32,000 nucleotides of DNA from an uncultured Candidatus Saccharibacteria bacterium (GTDB lineage Bacteria > Patescibacteriota > Minisyncoccia > UBA6257 > UBA11618), in assembly GCA_964432405.1 (NCBI GenBank), contig CAYSNH010000001.1:120001-152000 (forward strand), given 5' to 3'. The translations under genes were made by a program, and so were the position numbers. The notes beneath the pieces are model-generated. The model made no database searches and had not been told where the DNA came from. It saw only the letters and a program-made list of their open reading frames with translations. Positions 3,218 through 32,000 of the stretch are shown here, in pieces (the first letter of the stretch is position 1; each line of letters starts with the position of its first letter).

Positions 3218-3240
3218 TTTTAAAAAAATAATATAAATTG

Positions 3241-13263: not shown

Positions 13264-14415
13264 TTACAGACTCTTTAAAACAGCCCCTCTATCACTCCAA
13301 GCAATATTTTTACCTCCTTTTAAGTGAATAGAATTTTCACTGCCTTTGCCGGTAATAATAACCACGTCTCCAGATTGAGCTAGTTCAATAGCAATCTTAA
13401 TCGCTTCTCCTCGATCAATAACCTTCTTAGCTTGAGGACAGCCTTTAGCAATCTCCTCGATAATATTTTCTGGATCTTCATCATAAGGATCTTCATTAGT
13501 TAAAATAACTTCATCTCCATACTCAGCCGCAATCTTACCCATCTCGGGTCGCTTCCATTTATCCCTTCCCCCTCCAGCTGATCCCAAAACACAAATCAAT
13601 CTATCGTATTCCGGCTTGAGACTTTGATAGACCGCCTTTAGAGAATCTGGCGTATGAGCATAATCAACTATCACCGCAAAAGGCTCTTGTTGAATAAATT
13701 CCATTCTTCCAGGAATACCCGCAAAACCAACCACCCCTTTTCTAATATTTTCTTTATTAACTCCTAGCTCACTAGCGATAACTTCAACTAGCCCTACATT
13801 ATATTTATTAAACTCTCCGGCTAATTGGCTTTCAAGATTACTTTTCCCAAACCAAACCACCTTTCCTTGAGCCGCTTTTTCAAATTCCCTAGCATACTGA
13901 TCATCTTTATTAATAAAGCAAAGTTTTTGAGCTAGACGAAAAAGTTTTAATTTAGCTTCCTTATATTTATCAAAAGAACCATGAGCCTCAATATGCTCTG
14001 GAGCAAGATTAGTTAAAGCAGCCACATCCCACTTTATAAAAAGATGCCTGTTAGCAGCAATGCCCTCAGAGGTAACTTCAATAATTACATACCGACAACC
14101 AGCCTTAACAGAACGTCTTAAAAACTTTTGAATAAAAAAACGTCCAGGCATTGTAGTTTCGGTCTTATTCTTACCCTCCTCTTCTCCCACCTTAACCTTG
14201 ATCGATGAAAGAACCGCCACCTTCTCACTAGACGCTTCTAAAACAGCGCTCAATAATTCAATAGCAGTTGTCTTGCCTTTGGTTCCAGTAATGCCAATTA
14301 CAAAAATATCTTTTGAAGGAAAACCAAAAAACACCGCTCCTAAAAAAGACCAGCTAAAATGATACAACCAGGGAAGCCCTGGTATCATATAAAAAATTTT
14401 TCTTAAAAAATTCAT
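13264..14415 (-). CDS. murE: Mur ligase family protein, MurE-like, lacking the usual N-terminal domain
   Basis: 383 aa. Motifs: P-loop GITGTKGKTT; EVTSEGI...LTNLAPEHIEAHGSFDKYKEAKLKLF; DYAHTPDSL; GSAGGGRDKWKRPEMG; TNEDPYDEDP. A hydrophobic segment (IPGLPWLYHFSWSFLGAVFFGF) precedes the P-loop. Confidence 0.7.
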   Translation of the reverse strand: MNFLRKIFYMIPGLPWLYHFSWSFLGAVFFGFPSKDIFVIGITGTKGKTTAIELLSAVLEASSEKVAVLSSIKVKVGEEEGKNKTETTMPGRFFIQKFLRRSVKAGCRYVIIEVTSEGIAANRHLFIKWDVAALTNLAPEHIEAHGSFDKYKEAKLKLFRLAQKLCFINKDDQYAREFEKAAQGKVVWFGKSNLESQLAGEFNKYNVGLVEVIASELGVNKENIRKGVVGFAGIPGRMEFIQQEPFAVIVDYAHTPDSLKAVYQSLKPEYDRLICVLGSAGGGRDKWKRPEMGKIAAEYGDEVILTNEDPYDEDPENIIEEIAKGCPQAKKVIDRGEAIKIAIELAQSGDVVIITGKGSENSIHLKGGKNIAWSDRGAVLKSL

Positions 14416-14987
14416 TTCTTTACTTTCTTCAGAGCTTCTATTAAGCGATCTTCTAATTTTGTTAACTTAGGATCTATTTGAGAGATTATTTTTTTAGCTT
14501 GAGCCTTCGTATAATCTAAACTTACCAAAGCCTCTTCTAATTCAATATCAGACTCCATAGCCCTTACCACTTCCTCAGTACCTATAGCAACCACCTTACC
14601 TCTCAACTCCAAAACCACTCTCTCTGCCGTTTTTTTACCAATTCCTGAGGCACGAGTCAATAAATCCGGCTTACCTTCATTAATAGTTGCTATCAATTGA
14701 TCAACTGGAGCCACTGCCATCACTCCCAAGGCTGATCGAGGACCCACTCCGCTGATACTAATTAATTTCTCAAAAAAACCTAGTTCTAATTCTGTTGAAA
14801 AACCATATAGATCTAAAGCGTCTTCTTTTACATTTAAATAAGTATAAATTTTTAACTCTTCTCCTGTTTCTGGTAAAAGGTCGTGAGTTTTTGGCGATAT
14901 AAATACTTTGTAATTTACCTTATTAACATCAACGATAATAAAATCCTCTTTTTTAGACACTAACTCTCCTACTAAACGATAAATCAT
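14412..14987 (-). CDS. ruvA: Holliday junction branch migration complex subunit RuvA
   Basis: 191 aa. MIYRLVGELVSK...VNKVNYKVFIS...LISISGVGPRSALGVM...GIGKKTAERVVLEL is a canonical RuvA sequence. Confidence 0.9.
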   Translation of the reverse strand: MIYRLVGELVSKKEDFIIVDVNKVNYKVFISPKTHDLLPETGEELKIYTYLNVKEDALDLYGFSTELELGFFEKLISISGVGPRSALGVMAVAPVDQLIATINEGKPDLLTRASGIGKKTAERVVLELRGKVVAIGTEEVVRAMESDIELEEALVSLDYTKAQAKKIISQIDPKLTKLEDRLIEALKKVKK

Positions 14988-15068: not shown

Positions 15069-16862
15069 ATGAAGTTTAAGTTAGAATCACCCTTCAAGCC
15101 CGGAGGTGATCAACCCCAAGCTATCAAAGAACTCGTTAAAGGAGTTAAAAAAGGCCATAAAGATCAGGTCTTATTAGGCGTAACTGGATCAGGTAAAACC
15201 TTTACCATTGCCTCAGCTATTAAAGAATTAAATATGCCAACTCTAATAATCTCTCCTAATAAAATATTAGCTGCTCAACTTTATCAAGAATTTAAATCAT
15301 TTTTTCCTAAAAACGCTGTTAATTACTTCGTTTCCTATTACGACTACTACCAACCCGAGGCCTATTTACCAATAGATAAAACCTACATACAAAAAGATGC
15401 TCGTATTAATTCAGAGATTGATAAGCTACGTCATGCTGCTATTCAAAATCTATTTACCAGAAAAGACTCTTTAATTATCGCTTCTGTTTCTTGCATTTAT
15501 GGAATCGGTAGTCCTGACAACTATAAAAAAGCCCGTCTAGAATTAAAAGTTGGTGGAGTGATTAGCAATAAAGATATTATTAATCACCTTAGCCTTCTTC
15601 AATATATTCGTAGCCAAAACAATATAGCCTTAGGAGAATACATATTAGATACTAATCGACTAGGAACAGGCAAAGTTATCATCCACCTAGTCACAGATAA
15701 TAAGGTGGAAATAGAAATGAATCGTAAAAAGATTATTTCTATTAAGATGGATGATAAAAATAGAGATAGTCTAGATATTTATCCAGCAAAATTTTGGGTA
15801 ACTCCCCAACATCAATTTAATCTCGCTCTACAAAACATTAAAAGCGAGATGGAGGAAAGAGTTAGGTGCTTTCAATCAGATAATAGATTTGAAGAAGCTG
15901 AGCGCTTAGAAAAAAAGACCTTGTTTGATATTGAGATGTTAAAAAAACAAGGTTATGTTAATGGTGTTGAAAATTATTCTCGGCATTTTGATTTTCGAGA
16001 ACCAGGCGAACCTGCTCTCACATTATTAGATTATTTTCCTAAGCCATTCCTATTAATAGTTGATGAATCTCATATCACGATCCCCCAACTAAAAGCCATG
16101 CAAACTGGTGATTCAAGAAGAAAAGATTCTTTAATTACATACGGCTATCGACTACCTTCTGCTATAGATAATCGACCCTTACGTTTTGAAGAGTTTGAAA
16201 AGAAGGTTGGGCAAACTATTTATGTTTCTGCTACTCCTGGTGATTATGAAATAAATAAAGCTAAAAAGAATGGCCAAATAACTGAGCAGGTGGTAAGGCC
16301 TACGGGAATTTTAGATCCTAAAATATCTATCCGACCAGCTCAAACTCAAGTGATAGATTTATTAAAAGAAATTAAGAGTCGTGTAGCTAAAAATGAACGA
16401 GTTTTAGCACTTACATTAACTAAAAGATCTGCTGAGGATTTAACTGAACATCTATTAGATCAAGGCATTAAAGCTAGCTACCTACATTCAGAGATTAAAA
16501 CCTTAAAAAGGCCTGAGGTTTTAGCCTCTTTACGTCGAGGTGATATTGACGTGGTTGTTGGTGTTAACTTATTACGTGAAGGATTAGATCTCCCTGAGGT
16601 AAGTCTAGTAGCTATTCTTGATGCAGATCGAGAAGGATTTCTTCGCAACTATCGAGGCCTTATTCAAATGGCTGGTCGAGCAGCTCGATCAACTAAAGGC
16701 CAGGTTATTCTTTATGCTGATCTCTTAACCAACTCTATTAAACAGACCCTAGAAGAGACCAAAAGGCGTCGGCAGGCCCAAACAAAGTTTAATAAAAAAA
16801 GTGGCATTACCCCTCAAGAATTGAACAAGCCCATCATGGTTAGTGATTTTAATATTGACTAA
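15069..16862 (+). CDS. uvrB: excinuclease ABC subunit B (short form without C-terminal UVR domain)
   Basis: 597 aa. FKPGGDQPQAIKEL...GVTGSGKTFT, DESH, GLDLPEVSLVAILDADREGFLR and GRAAR are the UvrB helicase motifs. The ORF ends shortly after ...ETKRRRQAQTKFNKKSGITPQ. Confidence 0.92.
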   Translation: MKFKLESPFKPGGDQPQAIKELVKGVKKGHKDQVLLGVTGSGKTFTIASAIKELNMPTLIISPNKILAAQLYQEFKSFFPKNAVNYFVSYYDYYQPEAYLPIDKTYIQKDARINSEIDKLRHAAIQNLFTRKDSLIIASVSCIYGIGSPDNYKKARLELKVGGVISNKDIINHLSLLQYIRSQNNIALGEYILDTNRLGTGKVIIHLVTDNKVEIEMNRKKIISIKMDDKNRDSLDIYPAKFWVTPQHQFNLALQNIKSEMEERVRCFQSDNRFEEAERLEKKTLFDIEMLKKQGYVNGVENYSRHFDFREPGEPALTLLDYFPKPFLLIVDESHITIPQLKAMQTGDSRRKDSLITYGYRLPSAIDNRPLRFEEFEKKVGQTIYVSATPGDYEINKAKKNGQITEQVVRPTGILDPKISIRPAQTQVIDLLKEIKSRVAKNERVLALTLTKRSAEDLTEHLLDQGIKASYLHSEIKTLKRPEVLASLRRGDIDVVVGVNLLREGLDLPEVSLVAILDADREGFLRNYRGLIQMAGRAARSTKGQVILYADLLTNSIKQTLEETKRRRQAQTKFNKKSGITPQELNKPIMVSDFNID

Positions 16863-17927: not shown

Positions 17928-18779
17928 TTAATTATTATCCTGACACTTTGGACAATAATGAAAAGACCGCCCTCCCTTCTTAGCCCTCTTCATTTTACTA
18001 ACCTTACACCTCCCACACTTTTCACCCTCTTTTCCGTAAGCTAAGCGATAATTAGCATAACCACCTCTCTTTCCTGAAGCGTCTCTATAGTCATCAACCG
18101 AAGTACCTCTAAACTTAACCGCTTTAGCTAATATCTGTTTAGTGGCTTTATGCATTAATTTTAACTGATCCTTGTTCAATTCATTTGCAGGCGTTAAAGG
18201 ATGTATTTTAGCCTTCCAAAGTATTTCACTAACATAAATATTACCAATCCCTGCTACCACCTCTTGATCTAGCAAGGTTTGATAAATAGTTTTTTTCTTT
18301 TTTAAAACATTATTTGAAAAATCTTTAAAAGATATTACTAGGGCGTCTGGGCCTAGTTTTTTTAACTCTGGTAGATTTTCTATCTCGTCCTTTGTTCCAA
18401 AGACCACTTTCCCAAATTTTCTTAAATCTGAAAAAGCAATCATCTTTCCATTATCTAAAACTAAAACAAAGTGAATAAAGCCATTGATTCTCTCTTTCAT
18501 CTCTTTGGGCTTTATTGGAATTACTTTTTTCTTTTTTATCTCCCACTCACCCACTAATAAATGCCCGGTCATTTTCATGTGAACCAGTAAGATGTGAGGG
18601 TCGGTAAAATAAAAGAGAATGTTTTTACCAATTCTTTCTATCTTTTTAATAGTATGCCCCTTAGCTTTATCAACTTGATTAAATTTTGGCCAATCGTACC
18701 AAGAACCAATAATCCGCCTACGGCGGACTTTTTTATTTAAACCATCAATAGTCGTCTGCACCTCTGGAAGCTCTGGCAT
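17928..18779 (-). CDS. mutM: formamidopyrimidine-DNA glycosylase (Fpg/MutM)
   Basis: It has the MPELPEV N-terminus, an H2TH region and a C-terminal CxxC...CxxC zinc finger (CGRC...CPKC). Confidence 0.9.
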   Translation of the reverse strand: MPELPEVQTTIDGLNKKVRRRRIIGSWYDWPKFNQVDKAKGHTIKKIERIGKNILFYFTDPHILLVHMKMTGHLLVGEWEIKKKKVIPIKPKEMKERINGFIHFVLVLDNGKMIAFSDLRKFGKVVFGTKDEIENLPELKKLGPDALVISFKDFSNNVLKKKKTIYQTLLDQEVVAGIGNIYVSEILWKAKIHPLTPANELNKDQLKLMHKATKQILAKAVKFRGTSVDDYRDASGKRGGYANYRLAYGKEGEKCGRCKVSKMKRAKKGGRSFHYCPKCQDNN

Positions 18780-19942: not shown

Positions 19943-21232
19943 TTAAAGATCAGCCCAATTTTTTCCTATCGACACATCAACCTTGAGACGCACAGGAAAA
20001 TCATAAACCGTTTCCATAATTTGAGTGATTTTTTTAACTACACTATTAACTTTATCACTCTTAATCTCAAACAACAATTCATCATGAATTGATAAAAGAA
20101 GCCTTACGTCATCATTTTTATATTGCTGATAAACTTTAATCATAGCTAACTTAATAATATCTGCCGCCAAGCTCTGAATGGGCATATTAATCGCCGCTCG
20201 CTCAGCCTCAGAGGCTAAAAATCTATTAACAGAATTGATGGCTGGTAGCCAACGCTTTCTACCATTCAGATTTTCAACATAACCGATCTTCAACGCCTTC
20301 TTTTTAATCTTTTCTTGCCACGCTTTTATCTTCTTAAAATCAGCTAAATATTCTTTAATGAAATGATCGGCCTCTTTTCTGCTCAAGCCACTACTACGAG
20401 CAAAAGCAACCGCTCCCATTCCATAAACAATTCCAAAGTTAAGTGTCTTAGCCATCTTCCTCATATCTACTGTTACTTTATCAAGCTCCACATTAAAAAC
20501 CTGGCTGGCTGTAAGGCGATGAATGTCTTGATCTTTTTTAAAGGCACTGATCATTTTTGGATCATTACTTAAACCAGCTAAAATTCTTAATTCAATCTGT
20601 GAATAATCTAAAGAAACCAACTTGTATCCTGGGCTAGCAATAAAAACCCTCTTAACCACTAAAGGAATGTTCTGAAGGTTGGGATTTTGAGAGCTTAATC
20701 TTCCTGTTGCGGTACTAGTCTGAAGAAAAGTTGTATGAACACGATCACCTAATTTTATTAATGGCTCTAAATAAGTAGATTTTATTTTAAAAGACTCTCT
20801 ATATTGAATAATTAATTTAATAATCGTGTGCTCTTCTTTTAGATCTTGTAACTTTTCTGCTCTAGTTGAATGCAAGCCACTTTTAGTAGCTCTCCCCCTT
20901 GGTTTAATCTCTAATTTTTCAAATAAAATTTTAGAAAGTTGCTGTGGGGAATTTATATTAAATTCTTCACCCGCCTCCTTATAAATATTTTTTTCTAATG
21001 TTTGTAATTCTTTATTGTAATCAGTTAAAAGTTTCTTGACGGTTTTTTTATTAATCTTAATTCCTAATCTCTCCATTGATCTTAAGACCTCAACCAAGGG
21101 TAGCTCAATCTCATTAAATATCTTTTCCAAACCCTCTTCTTTCAACCTACCTAGTAAATCTCCCTCGTCACTCATTGGGTTATCAGGGTTAAGAAGCCAA
21201 TTAGCTATTTTATTTTTTATTTCTTGATTCAT
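19943..21232 (-). CDS. polA: family A DNA polymerase, polymerase domain only (split PolA, C-terminal gene)
   Basis: 429 aa with Pol I motifs: motif A SLDYSQIELRILA, motif B RKMAKTLNFGIVYGM and motif C SIHDELLFE. It starts at the thumb region, with no 3'-5' exonuclease-like domain. Confidence 0.9.
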   Translation of the reverse strand: MNQEIKNKIANWLLNPDNPMSDEGDLLGRLKEEGLEKIFNEIELPLVEVLRSMERLGIKINKKTVKKLLTDYNKELQTLEKNIYKEAGEEFNINSPQQLSKILFEKLEIKPRGRATKSGLHSTRAEKLQDLKEEHTIIKLIIQYRESFKIKSTYLEPLIKLGDRVHTTFLQTSTATGRLSSQNPNLQNIPLVVKRVFIASPGYKLVSLDYSQIELRILAGLSNDPKMISAFKKDQDIHRLTASQVFNVELDKVTVDMRKMAKTLNFGIVYGMGAVAFARSSGLSRKEADHFIKEYLADFKKIKAWQEKIKKKALKIGYVENLNGRKRWLPAINSVNRFLASEAERAAINMPIQSLAADIIKLAMIKVYQQYKNDDVRLLLSIHDELLFEIKSDKVNSVVKKITQIMETVYDFPVRLKVDVSIGKNWADL

Positions 21233-22104
21233 TAATCAATAATATTTTCTAATCTATTAATTAAACTAGCAAAACCCATTTCTTGAAAAAAACTTTTAAT
21301 CCCATCTCTATTCAATGGCCTTCTTTTTAAATCGTCTAAAGAAAAATCAAATGGAATATCAACTCTAATCGTGGCTAAGTCCTTAGAAAATAAAGCTGCT
21401 TCTTTTTGATTCTCTAATTTATTACCAATCTTCTCTGGCAACTCCCAAAGATTTTCAAATAAATTATCAAGGTTACCGTACTTAGCTATTAATGGGCTAG
21501 CGGTTTTAGGACCCACCCCTTTAATACCTGGAATATTATCAGAAGTATCACCTAGCAACCCTTTGAGATCTGTTAATTGATTTGGATTTACGCCATAACG
21601 CTCAATTACCGCCTCCTCATCATAAAGCTTCGTCTCACTAATTCCCTTTTTTAAAAACTGAACCACTACCTTCTTACCATCTACTAATTGCAAGACGTCT
21701 AAATCTCCTGAAAGAATGATTACCACTAAATCCTTCTCGCCTTTAAACTTCTTAGCCAAAGACCCTATAACATCATCAGCCTCAAAACCCTCCCGATCAA
21801 TACTCTTAATTCCAAAAACCTCAAATAGATCACGAGCCTTTTTTACCTGCGACTGTAAATCGCTAGGCATGGTCGGTCGATGAATCTTATATTGATCATA
21901 TAACTTCCCTCTAAAAGTCTGGCCCGGTAAATCAAACGTCGCTGCTATATAATCAGGCCTCTGTTCTCTAATTATCTTTAACAAAACACTAGATAATCCA
22001 TAAACAGCCCCGCTCGCCTCTCCTTTTGAATTAGCTAAAGGTGGTAAGGCGTGAAAAAATCGATAAATTAAAGCGTGATTATCTATTAGTAATAAGGTCT
22101 TCAT
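21232..22104 (-). CDS. 5'-3' exonuclease / flap endonuclease (split PolA, N-terminal gene)
   Basis: 290 aa. LLLIDNHALIYRFFHA..., EADDVIGSLA and GDTSDNIPGIKGVGPKTA (H3TH) are typical of the Pol I 5' nuclease domain. Its stop overlaps the polymerase ATG as TAATG at 21232. Confidence 0.9.
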   Translation of the reverse strand: MKTLLLIDNHALIYRFFHALPPLANSKGEASGAVYGLSSVLLKIIREQRPDYIAATFDLPGQTFRGKLYDQYKIHRPTMPSDLQSQVKKARDLFEVFGIKSIDREGFEADDVIGSLAKKFKGEKDLVVIILSGDLDVLQLVDGKKVVVQFLKKGISETKLYDEEAVIERYGVNPNQLTDLKGLLGDTSDNIPGIKGVGPKTASPLIAKYGNLDNLFENLWELPEKIGNKLENQKEAALFSKDLATIRVDIPFDFSLDDLKRRPLNRDGIKSFFQEMGFASLINRLENIID

Positions 22105-22514
22105 TTTTTTATTTTAATCACTCTTTCTTTGGAGCTTTTACCATGCTCAAATTCTAACCAAATAGTCTCAGCAGGTAAAAGCTTTTTAATCCTATCAGCC
22201 CATTCTATTAAAATAATATTATTTTTATCCTTAATTAAATCCTTAAAACCTAAATCGACTAATTCTTTATCTTTTTTAATTCGATAAGCGTCTAAATGAT
22301 GAACTCTACGACCATCTTTAAGTTGATAACTGCGCATAATTACAAAGGTAGGGCTAAGCACCCTTCCTTTTACCCCTAGAGCTTTAAGAAAGGCCTGTAC
22401 AAAAGTTGTCTTCCCCGCCCCTAAGTCGCCCTTTAAGGCAAAAATTCTTCCTTTGGATTTTTTAGCTAGTTCTTGAGCTACTTTTTTAGTCTCAACAACT
22501 CCTTTTGTAATCAT
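22101..22514 (-). CDS. tsaE: tRNA t6A37 biosynthesis ATPase TsaE
   Basis: 137 aa. The motifs GDLGAGKTTFVQ, SPTF, HLDAYR and IEWA give the TsaE/YjeE signature. Confidence 0.88.
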   Translation of the reverse strand: MITKGVVETKKVAQELAKKSKGRIFALKGDLGAGKTTFVQAFLKALGVKGRVLSPTFVIMRSYQLKDGRRVHHLDAYRIKKDKELVDLGFKDLIKDKNNIILIEWADRIKKLLPAETIWLEFEHGKSSKERVIKIKK

Positions 22515-23488
22515 ATTAATCTTTCTTGAGGAACCTCACGACCTAAATGACGGTAAGCTGTTTCTGTCACCACTCTCCCAGAAGGAGTTCTAATTAAAAA
22601 TCCAATAGATAATAAATGAGGCTCATAAACATCTTCTATGTTTCCCGAATCATCATTTAAAGCTGCGGCTAATGAATTAATCCCTACCGGCCCACCTTTA
22701 AATTTATCAATCACTACCTCTAATAACCTTCTATCCATTGGCTCTAATCCTTCGCTATCAATCTCTAATAGATTTAAAGTATTTAAGGAAGTAGCCTTAT
22801 CAACATGATTAATATTATTAACATCAGCAAAATCTCTCACTCTTTTTAATAAACGGTTAGCTACTCGAGGAGTTGATCTTGAAGCCTTAGCTAAAACCTC
22901 AACGGCGTCATCATCCATTTTCATATTTAAAACCTTGGCTGATCTTTTAATAATATTTCCTATATCTTTTAGATCATAGAAATCTAATTTAAAAGAAGCT
23001 CCGAAACGAGAGCGTAATGGCCCGGATAATAAATGAGGGCGAGTAGTAGCGGCTATAATAGTAAAAGCTGGAAGGTCTAAAGTTACCGTTCTAGCACCTG
23101 GCCCCTTACCAATTACTAGGTGAAGCTTACGACTCTCCATAGCTGGATACAAAACCTCTTCAATAGACTTATTCAGTCGATGAGCCTCATCAATAAACAA
23201 AACATCATTCTCCTCTAAATTACTTAATACGGCTGCTAAATCACCCATCTTCTCTAAAGCTGGTCCGGATGTAATTTTAATATTAAAACCCAAATCTTTA
23301 GCCACTAAACCAGCTAAAGTTGTCTTTCCTAAGCCAGCTTGGCCATAAAATAATAAATGATCACAAGCTTCTCCTCTTTTTTTAGCGGCATCTAAAATAA
23401 TCCGCAGATTAATTTTAATCTTCTCTTGACCAACATAATCATCCCAATCTACAGGACGTAAAACACCATCAATAGTTAAATTATCCAT
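22511..23488 (-). CDS. ruvB: Holliday junction DNA helicase RuvB
   Basis: 325 aa. Motifs: LRPVDWDDYVGQEKIK, GQAGLGKTT, FIDEAHRL, TTRPHLLSGPLRSRF. Confidence 0.93.
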   Translation of the reverse strand: MDNLTIDGVLRPVDWDDYVGQEKIKINLRIILDAAKKRGEACDHLLFYGQAGLGKTTLAGLVAKDLGFNIKITSGPALEKMGDLAAVLSNLEENDVLFIDEAHRLNKSIEEVLYPAMESRKLHLVIGKGPGARTVTLDLPAFTIIAATTRPHLLSGPLRSRFGASFKLDFYDLKDIGNIIKRSAKVLNMKMDDDAVEVLAKASRSTPRVANRLLKRVRDFADVNNINHVDKATSLNTLNLLEIDSEGLEPMDRRLLEVVIDKFKGGPVGINSLAAALNDDSGNIEDVYEPHLLSIGFLIRTPSGRVVTETAYRHLGREVPQERLI

Positions 23489-23494
23489 AAAAAT

Positions 23495-23523
23495 TTGACA
23501 AAACCTTTTCCTCGTGATAGAAT
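23495..23523 (+). promoter_or_regulatory. near-consensus sigma70 promoter on the plus strand, driving the structured RNA at 23530-23702
   Basis: TTGACA(23495-23500), a 17-nt spacer, then TAGAAT(23518-23523). No plus-strand CDS lies downstream; both flanking genes are on the minus strand. Confidence 0.6.
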
Positions 23524-23529
23524 AACGCC

Positions 23530-23702
23530 GTTAAATAAAGGTCATTGATCTGTGGGCAGGGAGTTTCCTTTAGATATTTCGGGTAGCCAAGCTTCGGCTC
23601 GACTATTCCTCGATGAAACTCTGATTCTTTTATCCAATAAAAGATTTTTAGTCCTTCCGAGGGCAACGCCCACAGATCAATGGTCTTTATTTTTTTATTT
23701 TA
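23530..23702 (+). ncRNA. unassigned structured small RNA (~170 nt): 25-bp closing helix, internal hairpins, 3' U-tract
   Basis: Positions 23533-23557 pair with 23668-23692: 23 Watson-Crick pairs plus 2 G-U pairs, and those two positions would be A-C mismatches on the minus strand. Internal helices are GAGUUUC(23561-67)/GAAACUC(23615-21), AGCC-aagcuuc-GGCU(23585-99) and UCUUUUAU-cca-AUAAAAGA(23626-44). A possible pseudoknot is CCUCG(23608-12)/CGAGG(23658-62). The RNA ends in UUUUUAUUUU. The family was not recognised. Confidence 0.5.
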
Positions 23703-25364
23703 AAAGTTCAGGCTACCTGTAGCAGTCTTAACCTCATCTAAAGTCGTTATTCCCATCAACATTTTTAATAAACCATCTTGCTGCATCGTTACCATACCTT
23801 GCTTTAAAGCAAACTCTTGCAACTGCGTCTCACTAGCTTCCTTTTCAATTAAAGACTCTATTTCTTTCTTAACCTGTAATAACTCAAAAATACCTACACG
23901 ACCTTTATAACCCGTCTGGTTACACTTATCACAACCAACTTCTTTAAATAAAATTGGCGTTTGATATCTAACCCTATCTACTCTTTCTGGTAATGATGAT
24001 AATAGATGAGCCACCTTAACCCTCATCTCATCATCGACCTCTACTCTCTGCTTACAATCATCGCATAATTTTCGAACTAATCTCTGGGCCATAATCATAT
24101 TTAAAGCTGGGCCAACGCTGGTTGGTTTAACGTCTAAATCTAATAATCTTGGAATAGACCCAGCTGCCTCATTAGCGTGAACGGTAGAAAAGACCAAGTG
24201 TCCAGTTAAAGCGGATTGAATTGCGGTATTAGCCGTCTCATTATCTCTAATCTCACCAACTAAAATCACATCTGGATCCTGTCTCATTATCGCGCTTAAA
24301 CCATTAGAAAATGTATACCCCTTCTCCTCATTAACCTGAGTTTGCTCTATTCCTTCAATGTTATATTCGATAGGATCTTCGATGGTAACAATTTTAATTT
24401 CAGAAGAGTGACGTTGCTTTAAAAAACTATAAAGAGTGGTTGTTTTTCCAGATCCAGTAGGGCCGGTATTTAAAATCATCCCATTTGGCTCTTGAATTTC
24501 CCTCATTACAATCTCTAAATCATCTTCCCGTAAACCTAACTCTTTTAAAGAAATATTAATCGCATTTGGATCTAACACCCTCATAACCACCGTCTCACCA
24601 TATTCTGATGGAACTACAGAAACTCTTAACTCAATATCCTTATCTCCAAAAGCGATTGAAAACCTTCCGTCTTGAGCCTTACCACCAATATCAATCTTTA
24701 AACCAGTTAATAATTTAATTCTAGATAGCAAACTTTTATATGAGGCTGGTGGAAGATCGTCAATGATAGTATTTAAAATTCCATCAATCCTATAACGGAT
24801 TCTAATTTTATCTACATTTGGTTCAAAATGGATATCAGATGACTTAGTGGTAACAGCTCCTGCTAAAATTATTTCTAAAACATCACCTATTGGTTGTTGA
24901 CTAATATTAAAACTACTAATCTCTTCTTTTATTATTTTTAAACTAGTTAATTTTCTAGCTAGGTCTTCTAAATTCTTTTCTTTAACATTAATTTCTCCTG
25001 TTATCTCCCCTTGCTTTTTAGGTAGCGCATCATAACCCTTCCAAGCTTTTCTTATAGAGCTTAAAGATGATAAATAAATAACAAGGTTGAATCCCTTGCT
25101 TTTTAAACCACTTAAAACTTCTTGCGTCTTATTGTTTTTAGGATCAATAATCGCCACAACTAAATTCTGACCCTTTAACTCAACCGGTATTACTTGAGCC
25201 GCTTCAGCATCAGTCTTCGATAAAGTTTCTAAAGCTTTATCATCAATCGTTTTCATTGAGAGATCTAAATAATCCAATCCAAGTTCATCAGCCCTTCTCT
25301 TTACCTCTCTCTCTTCTGAATCTCTTTTTATTTTAATTAATTGTTCCTCAATTGCTGAAGCCAT
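23700..25364 (-). CDS. type II/IV secretion system ATPase (PilB/GspE family)
   Basis: 554 aa. It has an N-terminal T2SSE_N-like region, Walker A GPTGSGKTT, Asp and His boxes, and the tetracysteine motif CDDCKQ...CDKCNQTGYKGR. Confidence 0.9.
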   Translation of the reverse strand: MASAIEEQLIKIKRDSEEREVKRRADELGLDYLDLSMKTIDDKALETLSKTDAEAAQVIPVELKGQNLVVAIIDPKNNKTQEVLSGLKSKGFNLVIYLSSLSSIRKAWKGYDALPKKQGEITGEINVKEKNLEDLARKLTSLKIIKEEISSFNISQQPIGDVLEIILAGAVTTKSSDIHFEPNVDKIRIRYRIDGILNTIIDDLPPASYKSLLSRIKLLTGLKIDIGGKAQDGRFSIAFGDKDIELRVSVVPSEYGETVVMRVLDPNAINISLKELGLREDDLEIVMREIQEPNGMILNTGPTGSGKTTTLYSFLKQRHSSEIKIVTIEDPIEYNIEGIEQTQVNEEKGYTFSNGLSAIMRQDPDVILVGEIRDNETANTAIQSALTGHLVFSTVHANEAAGSIPRLLDLDVKPTSVGPALNMIMAQRLVRKLCDDCKQRVEVDDEMRVKVAHLLSSLPERVDRVRYQTPILFKEVGCDKCNQTGYKGRVGIFELLQVKKEIESLIEKEASETQLQEFALKQGMVTMQQDGLLKMLMGITTLDEVKTATGSLNF

Positions 25365-25428
25365 CGCTATTATCCTAGCCGTTTTTTAACAAAAAATAAA
25401 GTGGTTGACTTTAAGTATTTCTCGGGTA

Positions 25429-25457
25429 TTGACTAAATATTGATTGTATGTAATAAT
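25429..25457 (+). promoter_or_regulatory. putative promoter of the small lipoprotein gene (TTGACT-17nt-AATAAT with upstream TG)
   Basis: TTGACT(25429-25434) and a 17-nt spacer ending in tgt, then AATAAT(25452-25457). The SD AAAGGA lies 6 nt upstream of ATG 25498. Confidence 0.45.
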
Positions 25458-25497
25458 ATGCCCAGTTCTTCAAACCTCTTTCGAGAAAGGAATGCTT

Positions 25498-25713
25498 ATG
25501 AAGAGGCTGCTTTACCTTAGTTTGCCGCTGATGGCACTTTTCATTAGTGGTTGCGCGGTGGGAGCTGGTTTCCAAATCGGCTCCCAACATCGCTGTGTTG
25601 GCTCCGCCTTCTACAGCGAAGCAGGGCGAGATGGATCCCAAATCATCTCCGCCACCCAAGTTGGCAAGCATCGACTTGCCATCAAATCAAAAACCGGTGT
25701 CCGAAAGGACTAG
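25498..25713 (+). CDS. small G+C-rich lipoprotein (71 aa), function unknown
   Basis: MKRLLYLSLPLMALFISGC is a textbook signal peptide with a lipobox (ISG-C), followed by AVGAGFQIGSQHRCVGSAFYSEAGRDGSQIISATQVGKHRLAIKSKTGVRKD. The gene has an SD, its own promoter and a strong terminator. Codons are G+C-rich (ctg, ccg, gcg, ggc, tcc, gcc), unlike the neighbours. The track ORF 25444-25713 is the same frame with an upstream alternative start. Confidence 0.65.
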   Translation: MKRLLYLSLPLMALFISGCAVGAGFQIGSQHRCVGSAFYSEAGRDGSQIISATQVGKHRLAIKSKTGVRKD

Positions 25714-25719
25714 GTTCAC

Positions 25720-25757
25720 CCCTCCCTCCCGTATTACGGGAAGGAGGGTTTCTTTTT
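25720..25757 (+). terminator. rho-independent terminator of the lipoprotein gene
   Basis: CCCTCCCTCCCG tatta CGGGAAGGAGGG pairs at 11 of 12 positions and is followed by TTTCTTTTT. Confidence 0.85.
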
Positions 25758-25784
25758 ATAATTATTCAAGTTATATATAAAAAT

Positions 25785-26297
25785 ATGTCTGGTCACTCTA
25801 AATGGAAAACTATTAAACATAAAAAAGAGGCTAAGGATCAAAAAAGAAGTCAGGTTTTCTCTAAAATATTAAAAGCTATTTCAGCTGCTGCTCGAGATGA
25901 AACTGATCCTAAGTTCAACTCTCAATTAAAAAACTTAATTGAAAAAGCTAAAGAAAATAACGTTCCTAATGATAATATTAAAAAAGCTATCGAAGGAGCT
26001 AAGGATAAAGATTTAAAAGAATTATTAATAGAAGCTTATGGACCCGGTGGTGTAGCTATAATAATTAAAGCTGTTACTGATAATAGTAATAGAACTATCG
26101 CTGAGATACGCCACTTATTAAATAAAAATAACTGTAAAATGGCTGAGTCTGGAAGTGTTCAATGGGCTTTTGAAAATAACGAACCTAAATTCCCTCAAGA
26201 AATAACCCCTGAAGAAAAAAATCTTTTAGATAAGGTGCTTGAAATCCTAGAAGATCATTCTGATATACAAAACATAATTACTAACGCTAAAGACTAA
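25785..26297 (+). CDS. yebC: YebC/PmpR-family transcriptional regulator-like protein (short, 170 aa)
   Basis: MSGHSKWKTIKHKKEAKDQKRSQVFSKILKAI...YGPGGVAIII...TDNSNRTIAEIRH is the YebC signature. The start is set at ATG 25785, the conserved N-terminus, which lies downstream of the terminator. It is about 70 aa shorter than typical YebC proteins. Confidence 0.85.
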   Translation: MSGHSKWKTIKHKKEAKDQKRSQVFSKILKAISAAARDETDPKFNSQLKNLIEKAKENNVPNDNIKKAIEGAKDKDLKELLIEAYGPGGVAIIIKAVTDNSNRTIAEIRHLLNKNNCKMAESGSVQWAFENNEPKFPQEITPEEKNLLDKVLEILEDHSDIQNIITNAKD

Positions 26298-26774
26298 ATG
26301 AAAGTTCTTGGTATTGATCCTGGGTCATCTCGATGTGGCTACGGTCTAATTGAAAAAGATGGCTCTAAATTAACCCTTGTTAATCATGGATTAATTGAAA
26401 TAAAAGAAAAAGATATTAATCATAAACTAACCCTCCTTGGTCATGATTATAAAAAAATAATAAAAGAGTTTAAGCCTGATTTAGTAGCGATAGAGAAGAT
26501 ATTTTTTTCTAAGAATGTTAAAACCGCAATAGAAGTTGCTCAAGCTCGGGGAGTTATAATGTACCTATCTTTAAAAGAAGGGGCGGATATCGTAGAATAC
26601 AATCCTCAAGAAATAAAACTATCAGTTACTGGTTACGGATTGTCTGATAAAAAAGCTGTAGCAAAAATGGTTTCTTCTATACTTAAAATACCCCCCTTAA
26701 AGGTAATTGATGATGTTACAGACGCTATCGCAATTTCAATCACAGCTGCTAACTTGACACGAAATAATAGTTAG
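26298..26774 (+). CDS. ruvC: crossover junction endodeoxyribonuclease RuvC
   Basis: 158 aa. MKVLGIDPGSSRCGYGLIE..., AIEKIFFSKN and DVTDAIAISI are RuvC catalytic motifs. Confidence 0.9.
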   Translation: MKVLGIDPGSSRCGYGLIEKDGSKLTLVNHGLIEIKEKDINHKLTLLGHDYKKIIKEFKPDLVAIEKIFFSKNVKTAIEVAQARGVIMYLSLKEGADIVEYNPQEIKLSVTGYGLSDKKAVAKMVSSILKIPPLKVIDDVTDAIAISITAANLTRNNS

Positions 26775-27054: not shown

Positions 27055-29400
27055 ATGAAAAGATTTTTAAATTATTTATTTTTAATATTTATTATTTGCG
27101 CCCTGGGGTTCACTGGGTATTTTTTCATTATCACTAAAAACCTTCCTGACCCTGAATTATTTGATCAAAGACAAATAAATCAATCTACAAAAATATTCGA
27201 TCGTACTGGTGATACATTACTTTATGAGATTCATGGTGAGGAAAAAAGAACTGTTATCCCTTATTCAGATATTCCAGACTACGTTAAACACGCCGCTATT
27301 TCTATTGAGGATGTAAAATTTTACGAACACTCTGGTATCGATTGGCAATCATTAGCTAGAGCTTTATTAGTTAATTTAAAAAGCGGTCGAATTGTTCAGG
27401 GTGGATCTACTATATCTCAACAATTAGCAAAAAATGCCTTTCTTACCCCTGAAAGAACTATCTCTAGAAAAATAAAAGAGTTGATTCTCACCCTTCGCCT
27501 AGAAAAGAAATATTCTAAGGATGAAATATTAAACCTATACCTTAACCAAATACCTTATGGTTCTAATGCTTATGGTATTGAGGCTGCTGCTCAAACCTTT
27601 TTTGAAAAAAAGGCTAAAGACCTATCTATAAACGAAGCCGCTCTTTTAGCTAGTTTACCTAGAGCCCCTAGCTACTACTCCCCCTACGGCACTCATGTTG
27701 ATGTTTTAATGGATAGAAAAAATCACGCCTTAAAACAAATGATGATTGCTAAATATATTACCAAAGAAGAATATGAGGAAGCTAAAAATGGGGAGTTGGA
27801 ATTCTCTCCTCATACTATAGGGATTAAAGCCCCTCATTTTGTTATAACCCTTCAAGAATATTTAAACGATAAGTATGGTGAGGATTTTGTTCAGAAAGGT
27901 GGTTTGAAAGTTATCTCAACTTTAGATTGGGATATGCAACAAATAGCTGAAAGAGTTATTAAAGAGGGCGCTGAAAGAAATTCTAATTTATATAATGGTA
28001 AAAACGCCTCTTTAGTAGCTCAAGATGCTAACACCGGTCAGATATTAACCCTGGTAGGCTCTAAAGATTATTTTGACACTGATAATGATGGTAATTTTAA
28101 CGTTGCTGTTCAAGGACTTAGGCAACCTGGTTCTGCTATCAAGCCTTTTGCTTATGTTACCGCTTTTAAAAACGGATTCTCCCCTGAAACTGTGGTTTTT
28201 GACACTTTAACAGATTTCGACACAACTGGAAAAAGAAGTTACACCCCTCATAACTTTGATGATAAGTTTAGGGGTCCTGTTAATTTAAGAAATGCCCTAG
28301 CTCAATCTATGAACGTACCTTCTGTTAAGGTTCTTTATTTAGCTGGTGTAGGAAATACATTAAAAACCGCGGCTGATTTTGGTATCACTACCCTTACAGA
28401 AAGAAGTCGTTATGGTCTCTCATTAGCTCTTGGTGGTGGAGAGGTTAAGTTAATTGATTTAGTTGGTGCATACTCTGTGTTCGCTCAAGATGGTCTAAAA
28501 CACGAACAATCAATGATATTAAGAATTGAAGATAGTAAGGGGGAGGTATTAGAAGAGTATAAGGATGACGTTGATGAGGTTATGGATCCTCAACACATTC
28601 GTTTAATAAACGACATTCTTACCGATATAGAAGTTAGAAGACAACTTTATCAAAGTAGTCTTCACTTAACCACCTTCCCTAATAAAGAGGTTGCTTTAAA
28701 GACTGGAACAACTAATGAATATCACGATGCTTGGGCTATGGGATACACCCCATCGTTAGTAGCTGGTGTCTGGGTTGGTAATAACGACAACACCCCCATG
28801 CAACAAAGAGGTAGTTCTATCTTAGCAGCTCTACCTATCTGGAACGCCTTCTTAAAAGAAGTTTTAGTTGATCAACCTCTAGAGACATTTGAAAGACCTG
28901 AACCTGTTAATGTTCAAAAACCTATACTAAAAGGTAATTATGTTGTCGATGGTGAAATCCATAACATTCTTCATTATATTAATAAAAGCAACCCTGATGG
29001 ATCAGTGCCAGTTAATCCTAGACGCGACTCTCAATACGATAACTGGGAGAAGGCTTTAGTGGAATGGATGAAAGACAACCCTGATAAAGTAAATGAATTA
29101 GCTTTAATTAATAAAAAACTATCTATTAGTATAGAAAAGCCTACTAACGGCAGCTTTATTAATAAAAGTTTTTCTGTGAAAGCTAAAATACAATCATCTC
29201 AAGAAATAAGAGGTATAGAGATTTACTTTAATAACAAATTAATAGGTCAAAGATCAGGTAATTTTGGTCTAGAGTACACCTATCAAGATAATTTCAACTT
29301 AAAAGATATTAAATCTCAGAACGCATTAAAAATAAAAGTTACAGATAGTGATAATAAGAAGCTAGAGGAAGAGATCGTTATTTATCACAAAAACTCCTAA
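27055..29400 (+). CDS. class A penicillin-binding protein (PBP1A-type transglycosylase/transpeptidase)
   Basis: 781 aa with an N-terminal TM anchor. GT51 motifs: EDVKFYEHSGID, GGSTISQQLAKN, RKIKE. Transpeptidase motifs: SAIKPF (SxxK), SMN (SxN), KTGTT. Confidence 0.92.
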   Translation: MKRFLNYLFLIFIICALGFTGYFFIITKNLPDPELFDQRQINQSTKIFDRTGDTLLYEIHGEEKRTVIPYSDIPDYVKHAAISIEDVKFYEHSGIDWQSLARALLVNLKSGRIVQGGSTISQQLAKNAFLTPERTISRKIKELILTLRLEKKYSKDEILNLYLNQIPYGSNAYGIEAAAQTFFEKKAKDLSINEAALLASLPRAPSYYSPYGTHVDVLMDRKNHALKQMMIAKYITKEEYEEAKNGELEFSPHTIGIKAPHFVITLQEYLNDKYGEDFVQKGGLKVISTLDWDMQQIAERVIKEGAERNSNLYNGKNASLVAQDANTGQILTLVGSKDYFDTDNDGNFNVAVQGLRQPGSAIKPFAYVTAFKNGFSPETVVFDTLTDFDTTGKRSYTPHNFDDKFRGPVNLRNALAQSMNVPSVKVLYLAGVGNTLKTAADFGITTLTERSRYGLSLALGGGEVKLIDLVGAYSVFAQDGLKHEQSMILRIEDSKGEVLEEYKDDVDEVMDPQHIRLINDILTDIEVRRQLYQSSLHLTTFPNKEVALKTGTTNEYHDAWAMGYTPSLVAGVWVGNNDNTPMQQRGSSILAALPIWNAFLKEVLVDQPLETFERPEPVNVQKPILKGNYVVDGEIHNILHYINKSNPDGSVPVNPRRDSQYDNWEKALVEWMKDNPDKVNELALINKKLSISIEKPTNGSFINKSFSVKAKIQSSQEIRGIEIYFNNKLIGQRSGNFGLEYTYQDNFNLKDIKSQNALKIKVTDSDNKKLEEEIVIYHKNS

Positions 29401-30503
29401 CTCTTAATCGGCATCAAGATATAAAAGTGAGATGTATCATCGGCTGATTTTATTACCGATGGACGATTATTACCATTAACTCCAAAAATTAAATTCTCAG
29501 AATCAATAACTTTCAGCCCATCAATTAAATAACGCCAATTAAAGGCAACGTTATCAAAATCTTTTCCATCGCTCTTGGTAGGGATCATATAATTATTCTC
29601 CCCTAACATCTGATTAGCTAAATAAACCTCCATCACCTTATTATTTTTAAGAGCGAGATTAACATCATTATTTTTTCCACTAAAAGTGCTAACTAAACGA
29701 ACAGCGTTAATAAAATGATCCTTATTAACACTTAACTCAGTTTCAATGCTCTTGGGAATAATCTGCTCATAGTCCGGATAATCTCCATCTATTAATCTAG
29801 ATATTATTTGTAGATTATTGTTCTTAAAAAGAATTTGATTATCGTCTATAAAAATCTTAATAGGCTCATCATCGCTAAACACCCTTAACACCTCCTGAAC
29901 AGTCTTCAGTGGAACGATTACCTTAAAGCTGTGGTTTATATCGGATTTGAATTGATTGGAGCTAATACTCTTCTCTGCGAGCCTAAAACTATCGGTCGCC
30001 ACTAATTTTATAAGTGTTACTTGATAATCGATTAGCAAACCACTAATCTCTGGTCTAATCTCTGATATTTGAGCGGCACTAATAACCTTATTAACAGCCT
30101 TTCTTAAAATAACAGGATTGAACTCTATAAAATTCTCGCTTTTAACTTGAGGGATAACCGGAAACTCATCTTCTTTAAGTCCTTGGATCTTAGCTTCATA
30201 ATTATCTGTTTTAAAAATAAAGTTATCTCCATCCTTTTCCAAACTAACTCTTTCTTGATTAGTGTTATTAACAATATTGTTTAAAGTATTAAAAGGAATT
30301 GTTAATCCACCCTCTTCAATTATTTTTCCGGAAACAGTTTTTGTAATAGCTAGTTCTAAATTAGTGGTTGAGATATTAATCTTATTACCATTAGTTTTTA
30401 ATAAAACATTTCTAAGAATTGGTAGATTAGAACTTTCCCCTATAGCTCTCTCTACAGAAGATAACCCACCCTTTAAATTACTTTTCAATATAATAACCTT
30501 CAT
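29397..30503 (-). CDS. dnaN: DNA polymerase III beta sliding clamp
   Basis: 368 aa with a three-domain clamp pattern (MKVIILKSNLKGGLSSVERAI..., TDSFRLAEK, ...ILMPIKS). It lies directly downstream of dnaA and oriC. Confidence 0.9.
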   Translation of the reverse strand: MKVIILKSNLKGGLSSVERAIGESSNLPILRNVLLKTNGNKINISTTNLELAITKTVSGKIIEEGGLTIPFNTLNNIVNNTNQERVSLEKDGDNFIFKTDNYEAKIQGLKEDEFPVIPQVKSENFIEFNPVILRKAVNKVISAAQISEIRPEISGLLIDYQVTLIKLVATDSFRLAEKSISSNQFKSDINHSFKVIVPLKTVQEVLRVFSDDEPIKIFIDDNQILFKNNNLQIISRLIDGDYPDYEQIIPKSIETELSVNKDHFINAVRLVSTFSGKNNDVNLALKNNKVMEVYLANQMLGENNYMIPTKSDGKDFDNVAFNWRYLIDGLKVIDSENLIFGVNGNNRPSVIKSADDTSHFYILMPIKS

Positions 30504-30767: not shown

Positions 30768-32000
30768 TTATCCCTTATCAATAATATCTCTGATCATGAT
30801 TATTTTTTGGTTCAACATTTGATTTTTTAAAATCTCTTTTTTGATTTTATCATAGGCATAAATAGCTGTAGTATGATCTCTTTTACCCAATTTATTAGCA
30901 ATGTAAGGATAAGATAATCCTAAGATATCCCTCAAAAGATATATAGATACTTGTCGCGGTTCAACAATCTCCTTTTTTCTAGATCGGCTAATTATATCAT
31001 TGATAGAAATCTCAAAAAAGTTAGATACGACTTTCATTATTTGATCAGGATTGGTTGTTTTAGCTGGTTTTTGAACTATATTATCAATTATTTGATCAAG
31101 TGTTTTAGCGCTAACCTCCTCTTTTTTAACCTCTTTATAAAATAAAACCTTATTTAAAATACCTTCCAACTCCCTTAAATTCTTCTGAGTCTTACCAGCT
31201 ATAGCATTAACAACCTCGTCGCTTAACTCCACCCCTTTTTCTTCTAATTTATTACGTAAAACAGCTACCTTAAGCTCGAAATCAGGTGATGATATATCAA
31301 CTGTCATCCCACCTTCGAAGCGAGAGCTTAGTCTTTCCTCAAGAACAGGTATGAATTTAGGTGATCTATCAGAAGATAATATAATCTGTTTATTTTGTTC
31401 AAATAAGGCATTAAATGTGTGAAAGAACTCCTCCTCAGTCTTCTCTTTACCACCAATGAATTGAATATCATCAATAATTAAAACATCTATATTTCTATAT
31501 TTAGCCTTTATAGTATCCATTCTCTTATTTCTCATCGCCCAAATAACATCATTGGTGAATTTTTCAGAGGAAACATATTTAACTTTAATATTTCCCTTAG
31601 ACTTCTTTTTTATCTCGTTACCAGCCGCTTGAATCAGGTGGGTTTTACCAACTCCCACTCCCCCATAAATAAAAAGAGGGTTGTATTTATTACCCACTGA
31701 ATTAAGAACGGCTGTTATTGCTGCATAAGCTAGCTCATTAGTTGATCCAACAGCATAAGACTGAAGAGTGTACTGAGGATTGAGGCTGGTTTCAGGGTCT
31801 ATCTTGAATTCAGTAAAGCTTAACTGAGTTTCGTTTTCAGAAGGGGTTTTTTCTACAAGATCACTTGGTATTAAAGGTTTCTTTTGAGAGTAGATAATAA
31901 ACTCGATCTTCTTAACAGTCTCATCTAGCGATCGTAAAGAACCTAAAATAACTTTATCGTACTTTTTTTCTACCCATTCCTTAGCAAAGTTATTAGGTAG
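30768..32000 (-). CDS. dnaA: chromosomal replication initiator DnaA (N-terminus runs off the right window edge)
   Basis: The track ORF 30768-31697 starts at an internal GTG. The frame stays open to position 32000 (LPNNFAKEWVEKKYDKVILGSL...YTLQSYAVGSTNELAYAAITAVLNSVGNKYNPLFIYGGVGVGKTHL...). It has Walker A and B motifs (LIIDDIQF) and the domain IV motif DHTTAIYAYDKI. Confidence 0.93.
   Translation of the reverse strand, partial: LPNNFAKEWVEKKYDKVILGSLRSLDETVKKIEFIIYSQKKPLIPSDLVEKTPSENETQLSFTEFKIDPETSLNPQYTLQSYAVGSTNELAYAAITAVLNSVGNKYNPLFIYGGVGVGKTHLIQAAGNEIKKKSKGNIKVKYVSSEKFTNDVIWAMRNKRMDTIKAKYRNIDVLIIDDIQFIGGKEKTEEEFFHTFNALFEQNKQIILSSDRSPKFIPVLEERLSSRFEGGMTVDISSPDFELKVAVLRNKLEEKGVELSDEVVNAIAGKTQKNLRELEGILNKVLFYKEVKKEEVSAKTLDQIIDNIVQKPAKTTNPDQIMKVVSNFFEISINDIISRSRKKEIVEPRQVSIYLLRDILGLSYPYIANKLGKRDHTTAIYAYDKIKKEILKNQMLNQKIIMIRDIIDKG

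Follow-up and report, generated by a model that had tools for sequence, protein, structure and literature searches.

A structured RNA gene conserved between pilB and ruvB in Patescibacteria

What kind of element occupies the interval between pilB and ruvB in a stretch of contig CAYSNH010000001.1 (GCA_964432405.1; positions 120,001-152,000 of the forward strand, 32,000 nt, hereafter the window, to which all coordinates without a locus label refer)? An initial annotation had proposed a structured RNA gene without an assigned family, about 170 nt long and antisense to both flanking genes, and the comparisons reported here bear this proposal out: its homologues are syntenic and single-copy, four of its helices covary, and a genuine structured RNA gene is almost certainly present at this site. 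The RNA belongs to a previously uncatalogued family of Patescibacteria (the Parcubacteria/Paceibacteria-type candidate phyla radiation, CPR).

The gene is preceded on the plus strand by the sigma-70-type promoter TTGACA-17-TAGAAT that had been noticed at first reading. It scores 11/12 (promoter scores are matches out of 12 to sigma-70-type -35 and -10 hexamers) and carries in addition an extended -10 TG at 23515-16, within the spacer (TG-n before TAGAAT). Only four promoter-like sites reach at least 11/12 in the whole window, the RNA's promoter among them, and another of the four, which belongs to the same class, precedes the tmRNA gene. Transcription is predicted to start at about 23530-23533, and the first helix (P1) begins about 10 nt past the -10 box. 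The gene is tightly fitted between its neighbours: 6 nt separate the -35 box from the start codon (ATG) of ruvB, and the U-run that directly follows P1, also recognized in the initial annotation, overlaps the stop codon of pilB (23700-02, minus strand). This U-run is likely, from its sequence and position, to be the intrinsic termination point of the RNA; the terminator scan of the window returned no terminator-like site at the RNA locus. The locus had been described as richer in G+C than its surroundings, which is correct but modest (0.41 vs 0.358 for the window), the value being the same as that of the window's tmRNA gene.

The 173-nt plus-strand RNA has a minimum free energy of -63.2 kcal/mol (z = -6.3; none of 200 shuffles folded as well), and the minus strand folds equally well (z = -8.5), so that folding energy alone cannot assign the strand. 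The closing helix P1 is present as the initial annotation had drawn it, 25 bp long with one tandem G-U/U-G as its only departure from Watson-Crick pairing, and it encloses an interior of 110 nt which, according to both folds and covariation, is arranged as a four-way junction. The interior helix GAGUUUC/GAAACUC of the annotation corresponds to P2 and its perfect hairpin with a CCA loop to P4, both of which covary. The hairpin read as AGCC-aagcuuc-GGCU exists in another form, AGC-UUCG-GCU, and is better described as the UUCG-capped arm P3, with a cUUCGg tetraloop at 23593-96. The GGR/UCC base of P3, in full GGR-Y.../...NA-UCC, together with a small 1x2 internal loop is the most conserved sequence in both subtypes of the family (see below). 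The suggested pseudoknot CCUCG/CGAGG was found in 2 of 86 homologues vs 1.2 expected by chance, i.e., it is not conserved, and we abandoned it. K-turn and sarcin-ricin readings of the internal loop between P2 and P3 were likewise rejected, since the GA/AG dinucleotides that they require are not conserved in the alignment as judged by eye. The whole module measures about 160 nt in the window and 130-195 nt across the family, in which P1 has a median length of 21 bp and reaches 32 bp.

Relatives were collected by a RuvB-protein scan with one genome per species, which gave 80 ruvB loci (labels such as L001 denote the collected relatives). Searches of these loci with the element itself (nhmmer and blastn) gave a match in L001 only, the nearest relative (RuvB 76% identical), where the copy occupies the equivalent site and strand, has the same promoter and displays compensatory changes. 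A shared core, GGAYGG..UGGYUYCGRC..CC..UCCUC, was then seen upstream of ruvB in further loci, and distant members were found by eye, with a DNA pattern and with a covariance model. The pattern is degenerate, combines the shared core with the inner part of P1 and takes no account of context; on the local loci it recovered the six known copies and nothing else, and among the metagenomes it had single matches in at least 120 loci. According to tblastn, essentially every metagenome locus with enough flank has the divergent ruvB immediately before the RNA and the 3' end of the convergent pilB immediately after it. A pattern match in L175, which lies inside a 1531-aa open reading frame (ORF) and fails the covariance model, was discarded as a false positive. 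About 20 members were recorded by synteny (L001-L008, L011, L013, L015, L023, L033, L040, L042, L047, L057, L060, L072 and L074). The family spans RuvB identities of 52-89%, and its primary sequence is still conserved over this range. The RNA is absent from CPR loci in which pilB does not adjoin ruvB (L041, L043, L065, L073) and from the Firmicutes, Chloroflexi and other non-CPR loci examined, and no copy occurs in the viral contig, phage or plasmid collections. The matched loci point to broad conservation at the pilB-ruvB site in well over 100 CPR (Patescibacteria) genomes, with copies per genome and total taxonomic range extrapolated from contigs.

The secondary structure is supported by covariation. 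Minimum-energy folds of 45 members gave the same architecture every time, and a covariance model comprising P1-P4 (R2) was used to build an alignment (A7) of 86 non-identical sequences of type A, the subtype of the window, in which every position prescribed by the search pattern is necessarily invariant. Two controls were applied, partner shuffling (500 shuffles) and sliding by one column. In A7, 94.5% of the cells were paired vs 76.6% after shuffling and 54-56% after sliding, compensatory changes were present in 38 of 49 pairs, and the covariation score was 0.562 vs 0.235; none of the 500 shuffles matched any of the observed values, which are to be read with the reservation that pattern gathering and covariance-model fitting inflate apparent conservation and bias pair counts to the model. 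All four helices contributed: 16 of the 22 modelled pairs of P1 were compensatory, all 10 pairs of P2 had changed on both sides (95% of cells paired), P3 had five compensatory pairs out of 10 and three more that were invariant (97.8% paired), and all seven pairs of P4 were compensatory (93% paired). The result for P1 and P3 was repeated in an earlier alignment in which these two helices are free of gaps and anchored by sequence. In the second subtype, which was aligned with MAFFT alone and no model fitting, 90.8% of cells were paired (78.9% shuffled, about 50% slid) and 28 of 46 pairs were compensatory.

The same alignments identify the strand. The initial annotation had argued for a plus-strand RNA from the G-U pairs of P1, and in the family as a whole the helices contain 478 G-U/U-G pairs vs 101 A-C/C-A pairs, the latter being the wobble pairs of the opposite strand. 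For model R2 the window gave scores of 112.9 bits (plus strand) and 29.3 bits (minus strand), a gap that recurs in all members. A sigma-70 site of at least 10/12 that ends 10-80 nt before the inner P1 is found on the plus strand of 81 of the 96 unique sequences (perfect TTGACA in 75, TG extension in 78), and promoter-like hits on the opposite strand of the family are scattered singles only. The G-U bias, the strand score of the model and the strand of the promoter together argue for a plus-strand RNA. As to coding, the family shares no common reading frame: a small ORF of 56 aa (23552-23722) is not conserved, and in 63 of the 86 homologues stop codons keep every frame through the core below 45 codons.

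P1 starts 2 to 55 nt after the -10 box, depending on the member, and the region behind P1 is also variable: of 98 sequences, 46 have a U-run directly behind P1, about 28 a separate terminator further downstream and 24 no obvious terminator. In L003 (about 3060-3130, minus strand), L114, L107, L117 and L083 a separate, compact, G+C-rich terminator hairpin stands 10-40 nt past P1, and the 5' leader of some members, e.g., L003, contains a further small hairpin. An extra terminator beyond P1 implies that primary transcripts are longer than the conserved module, and the variability of leader and trailer around a constant P1 fits a role of P1 in defining the mature ends. The features of the locus and the other listed features of the window are collected in Table 1.

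Table 1. Coordinates of the RNA gene, its structural elements and neighbours, and of other features in the window
Feature	Position	Strand	Description
ruvB	22511-23488	-	Pfam RuvB_N / AAA_lid_4 / RuvB_C; divergent neighbour
Sigma-70-type promoter	23495-23523	+	-35 TTGACA 23495-23500, 17-nt spacer, -10 TAGAAT 23518-23523; 11/12
P1, 5' strand	23533-23557	+	25-bp closing helix; inner part CUGUGGGC conserved within subtype
P2, 5' strand	23560-23567	+	GGAGUUUC
Asymmetric internal loop, 5' side	23568-23580	+	CCUUUAGAUAUUUC region; UAG semi-conserved in family
P3 arm	23581-23609	+	29 nt; GGGUAG...AGC-UUCG-GCU...CUAUUCC
Internal loop, 3' side	23610-23614	+	UCGAU
P2, 3' strand	23615-23622	+	GAAACUCU
Junction J2/4	23623-23625	+	GAU in window; family consensus (U)AAC, common to both subtypes
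P4 hairpin	23626-23644	+	UCUUUUAU-CCA-AUAAAAGA; U/A-rich
P5, small variable hairpin	23651-23664	+	Sequence not conserved; some members without P5, e.g., L004
P1, 3' strand	23668-23692	+	Pairs with 23533-23557
U-run	23693-23702	+	UUUUAUUUUA; directly after P1
pilB	23700-25364	-	Type IV pilus assembly ATPase, Pfam T2SSE + MshEN; convergent neighbour
tmRNA	3238-3583	-	Rfam 149.9 bits; directly downstream of smpB
smpB	3543-3986	-	ORF overlaps tmRNA 5' end by ~40 nt
12/12 promoter	3692-3663	-	TTGACA-18-TATAAT; inside smpB coding region, ~80 nt upstream of tmRNA
Repair-rich segments	6135-7097, 14412-14987, 15069-16862, 17928-18779, 19943-23488, 25551-26774		See text

The initial annotation had also considered that no RNA gene exists here, and that the 25-bp inverted repeat belongs to a miniature inverted-repeat transposable element (MITE) with 25-bp terminal repeats or to an oversized bidirectional terminator of pilB. 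The repeat itself, its A/T-rich outer ends and the U-runs that flank it on both strands in the window agree with such readings, which we nevertheless regard as hardly credible. A mobile repeat was rejected given a single copy in the window, one copy per locus in at least 120 loci at the same syntenic site rather than dispersed repeats, no copy in phages, plasmids or viruses, and arms that covary as RNA. A terminator was rejected because its "loop" would comprise 110 nt that are conserved and contain three covarying helices, and a U-run follows P1 in fewer than half of the sequences; the G-U bias of the arms and the element's own promoter stand against both.

Nor does the RNA belong to a known class. 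The initial annotation could not match it by eye to SRP, 6S or RNase P RNA or to hammerhead motifs, and comparison with Rfam 15 (4227 models, including 6S, SRP, Y RNA, raiA, tmRNA, RNase P, riboswitches and ribozymes) was negative for all members tested: in the window only the tmRNA passed the gathering threshold, at E <= 10 the region 23440-23760 gave two chance hits, both below 18 bits, and no match was obtained at the position of the RNA in L001-L008, in seven short loci and in L005. A riboswitch or cis-regulatory leader was rejected, since the downstream pilB is convergent in nearly all loci, a same-strand gene follows the RNA only in L047 and L013, and, with a P1 of about 21 bp, no alternative fold is evident. 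For a retron msr-msd there is no reverse transcriptase domain among the window ORFs, the neighbours being RuvB, T2SSE, TsaE and 5'-3' exonuclease genes.

The family contains a second subtype at the same pilB-ruvB position (L011, L015, L033, L040, L042, L057, L060, L072, L074), in addition to a number of variants (L005, L006, L007, L013, L023, L047). Its P1 is 14-32 bp long, often with CUCUAAGCAAU/AUUGCUUAGAG, and each member has a consensus promoter. It shares with the window's subtype the base of the arm (AGGA-Y.../...UA-UCCU), the UAAC junction and the 3' hairpin, and an extra variable hairpin is located on the 5' side in the second subtype and on the 3' side in the window's subtype. A tRNA-like cloverleaf was considered for the second subtype and rejected, as neither T-loop nor D-loop signatures were present.

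The RNA also persists when its neighbours change. A TPR gene with the orientation of the RNA intervenes between the RNA and pilB in L047 and L013, and in L101, L125, L134 and L196 a ComEA-like helix-hairpin-helix and lamin-tail protein takes the place of ruvB and is followed by yebC. The inserted gene, directly downstream of the RNA (L047 2586-3569 and L013 2519-3499, both minus strand; Moraniibacteriota/Paceibacterota loci), encodes a TPR-repeat protein of about 327 aa. The ComEA-like proteins of L101 and L134 (146-1081 and 5590-6450, respectively, in the orientation of the RNA) and of L125 and L196 are secreted, with domains assigned by eye.

As to its role, we rate the chances as about even that the RNA is a stable, abundant, trans-acting protein-binding or scaffold RNA, which is the function that its sequence features suggest to us. 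The near-consensus promoter would provide large amounts of the RNA, P1 would seal and protect its ends, and the RNA would act in trans through a protein partner, with the internal loop of P3 and the junction as the recognition surface. In members with longer leaders or trailers, P1 may serve as a double-stranded processing stem (RNase III-type) that sets the mature ends. The fixed position between pilB and ruvB would then reflect inherited synteny or might add a local antisense effect. The conserved loop and junction sequences, the strand-specific G-U pairs and the survival of neighbour change fit a conserved macromolecular partner better than pure local base-pairing. Several points weigh against this interpretation. 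Transcription, abundance and processing are deduced from sequence, the type A alignment, gathered by pattern and fitted to a model, inflates sequence conservation and tilts the pair counts to that model, and the neighbourhood appears to predict no partner protein. A perfect helix of 21-30 bp is unusual in a stable bacterial RNA, and RNase III normally cuts such a helix. Finally, the constant site in a probable pilB-ruvB unit and the lack of a detectable ruvB promoter fit a local antisense or insulator function at least as well as they fit mere synteny.

With such a local function the RNA would regulate a pilB-ruvB unit (competence/recombination) as a cis-encoded antisense RNA or as a transcriptional insulator: its strong convergent promoter and the fully complementary RNA would collide or pair with read-through from pilB, RNase III would cut the duplex, and the level of ruvB (or of the ComEA-like gene) would thereby be set relative to that of pilB. 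In almost all loci with sufficiently long flanks the RNA occupies the interval from the 3' end of pilB to the ruvB start, with the tiny gaps described above in the window, and a minus-strand promoter of ruvB was detected neither in the window scan nor in the family alignment. With no promoter visible, ruvB is probably transcribed from pilB through the RNA gene in antisense, and the promoter and product of the RNA must then interfere with that transcript. The gene that substitutes for ruvB in some loci encodes a DNA-binding, ComEA-like protein, which keeps the theme of DNA uptake and recombination, and CPR loci with pilB apart from ruvB carry no RNA. The resemblance extends to known operon-embedded cis-antisense RNAs, which share the strong promoter opposite to the flanking genes, the complementarity to a probable read-through mRNA and the stable stem-loops. 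Unlike them, however, the RNA has deep sequence conservation in its loops and junction and selection for a plus-strand fold (G-U far in excess of A-C), neither of which is required by pure antisense, and it persists when a neighbour is exchanged or a gene is inserted on its own strand; in L047 and L013 the TPR gene separates the RNA from pilB, so that the RNA there is not antisense to the operon junction. We consider this function, the foremost alternative, possible and, on balance, rather unlikely as the explanation of the family, with the addition that trans-acting and cis-antisense roles are compatible and one does not preclude the other.

Among trans-acting RNAs, those with paired 5' and 3' ends, i.e., 6S, SRP (signal recognition particle) and Y-like RNAs, had been named in the initial annotation as similar, and the similarity holds for general shape and does not extend to membership. 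A very divergent 6S-type RNA, which would bind the sigma-70 holoenzyme as a mimic of an open promoter, agrees with the RNA in size, single copy, lineage-wide presence, its own strong promoter and ends paired in a long closing stem (at least 20 bp; 25 bp in the window, median 21 bp in the family) accompanied by a second long arm, and probably also in being a single abundant RNA of each genome. It is chiefly the shape that is conserved among 6S RNAs, and no literature joining 6S RNA with the CPR was found, the coverage of the search being incomplete. Against this, neither 6S (RF00013) nor 6S-Flavo nor any other Rfam model matched the tested members at E <= 10. The large central bubble is absent (the 5' linker between P1 and P2 is 0-2 nt long in 79 of 87 type A sequences), which leaves no single-stranded template for a product RNA, and the interior is instead a tight four-way junction supported by covariation. 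P1 is near-perfect and unbulged vs the bulged stems of known 6S RNAs, and P3 is conserved in sequence. A 6S-type RNA is thus improbable in our view.

A divergent SRP RNA or bacterial Y RNA (YrlA/Yrn1) would likewise have its ends paired in a long stem that carries modules, and an arm that combines a stable tetraloop with an asymmetric internal loop. The tetraloop at the apex of the arm (UUCG/UCCG; C/U-U-U/C-C-G closed by G-C) is not GNRA, the stem beneath it consists of covarying Watson-Crick and G-U pairs, the helix-8 loops of SRP RNA are absent, and no SRP model or other Rfam model matched; the 7-nt T-loop hairpin of the tRNA-like module of Y RNA is absent, no rsr gene adjoins the RNA, and the scanned ORFs of the window contain no TROVE domain. 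Both ffh and ffs are reported to be absent from Parcubacteria (PMC4508563), and a scan for the G4 box motif of Ffh/FtsY in 1.58 Mb of collected loci, as distinct from whole genomes, gave no match. We rejected both identities and regard them as very improbable.

A more specific form of the protein-binding interpretation is that the RNA is the RNA subunit of a Patescibacteria-specific housekeeping ribonucleoprotein without counterpart in other bacteria. This is a speculative proposal and a fairly unlikely one, according to which the RNA might stand in for a lost universal component (the SRP being reported absent in Parcubacteria) or might represent a novel regulator class acting on RNA polymerase, on the ribosome or on the pilus/DNA-uptake apparatus; proteins would then be bound at the invariant GGA-Y/NA-UCC loop of P3 and at the UAAC junction.

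With respect to known systems, the RNA is best placed among the lineage-specific orphan structured non-coding RNAs. Examples that emerged from comparative genomics are the raiA motif RNA, Bacteroidales-1 and Chloroflexi-1. Like these, it stands alone as a gene that has a promoter and a terminator of its own, a length of 100-200 nt and several covarying helices; it is confined to a single large lineage with one copy per genome, and had no assigned function when discovered. It matches none of them and differs from them in its restriction to Patescibacteria, its unusually long and near-perfect P1 and its fixed address between pilB and ruvB; within this class it stands out by its breadth in the CPR, its strong promoter, its long closing helix and its fixed address. 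No description of the RNA, or of any 6S RNA from the CPR, was found in Rfam 15 or in the full-text literature searched, which was incomplete, so that a prior description elsewhere is possible.

Patescibacteria account for a large share of bacterial diversity, have tiny genomes and are for the most part uncultured, and to our knowledge few of their non-coding RNAs have been described. Retention at one locus in relatives whose RuvB is only 52-57% identical to that of the window, a strong promoter and four covarying helices make it very likely that the RNA is important to the cells. It offers a concrete target for pull-downs, mapping of metatranscriptomes and structure determination, and its covariance model is new for the annotation of CPR genomes. 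Should the RNA turn out to be an analogue of 6S RNA, to regulate type IV pili and DNA uptake, or to belong to a new ribonucleoprotein, it would have a bearing on the way in which these episymbionts get by with so few canonical systems.

The window contains several other genes of note. The neighbourhood is unusually rich in DNA repair and recombination genes (polX-like, ruvA, uvrB, fpg, polA, 5'-3' exonuclease, ruvB, yebC and ruvC; segments in Table 1), and DNA polymerase I is apparently split into two abutting minus-strand ORFs, 19943-21232 and 21232-22104, which encode a family-A polymerase domain (429 aa) and a 5'-3' exonuclease (290 aa), with no 3'-5' exonuclease domain detected by Pfam. 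The YebC ORF (25551-26297, plus strand) is listed from a TTG, and the Pfam N-domain starts only at residue 83, which probably places the true start about 240 nt downstream; the segment before it overlaps an ORF of 86 aa (25411-25671, minus strand) that lies just upstream of pilB and has no Pfam match. A 170-aa ORF (9664-10176, minus strand) has a weak match above threshold to NMD3 (36 bits). NMD3 is a ribosome export adaptor of eukaryotes and archaea, and the match probably reflects a shared zinc-ribbon region only. Two adjacent minus-strand ORFs of about 220 aa, 7101-7766, which matches the first half of the MFS_1 profile, and 7777-8433, which has no Pfam match, could be a split or frameshifted transporter gene. 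At the right end of the window are dnaN (29397-30503) and dnaA (30768-31697), and the window is therefore probably near the replication origin.

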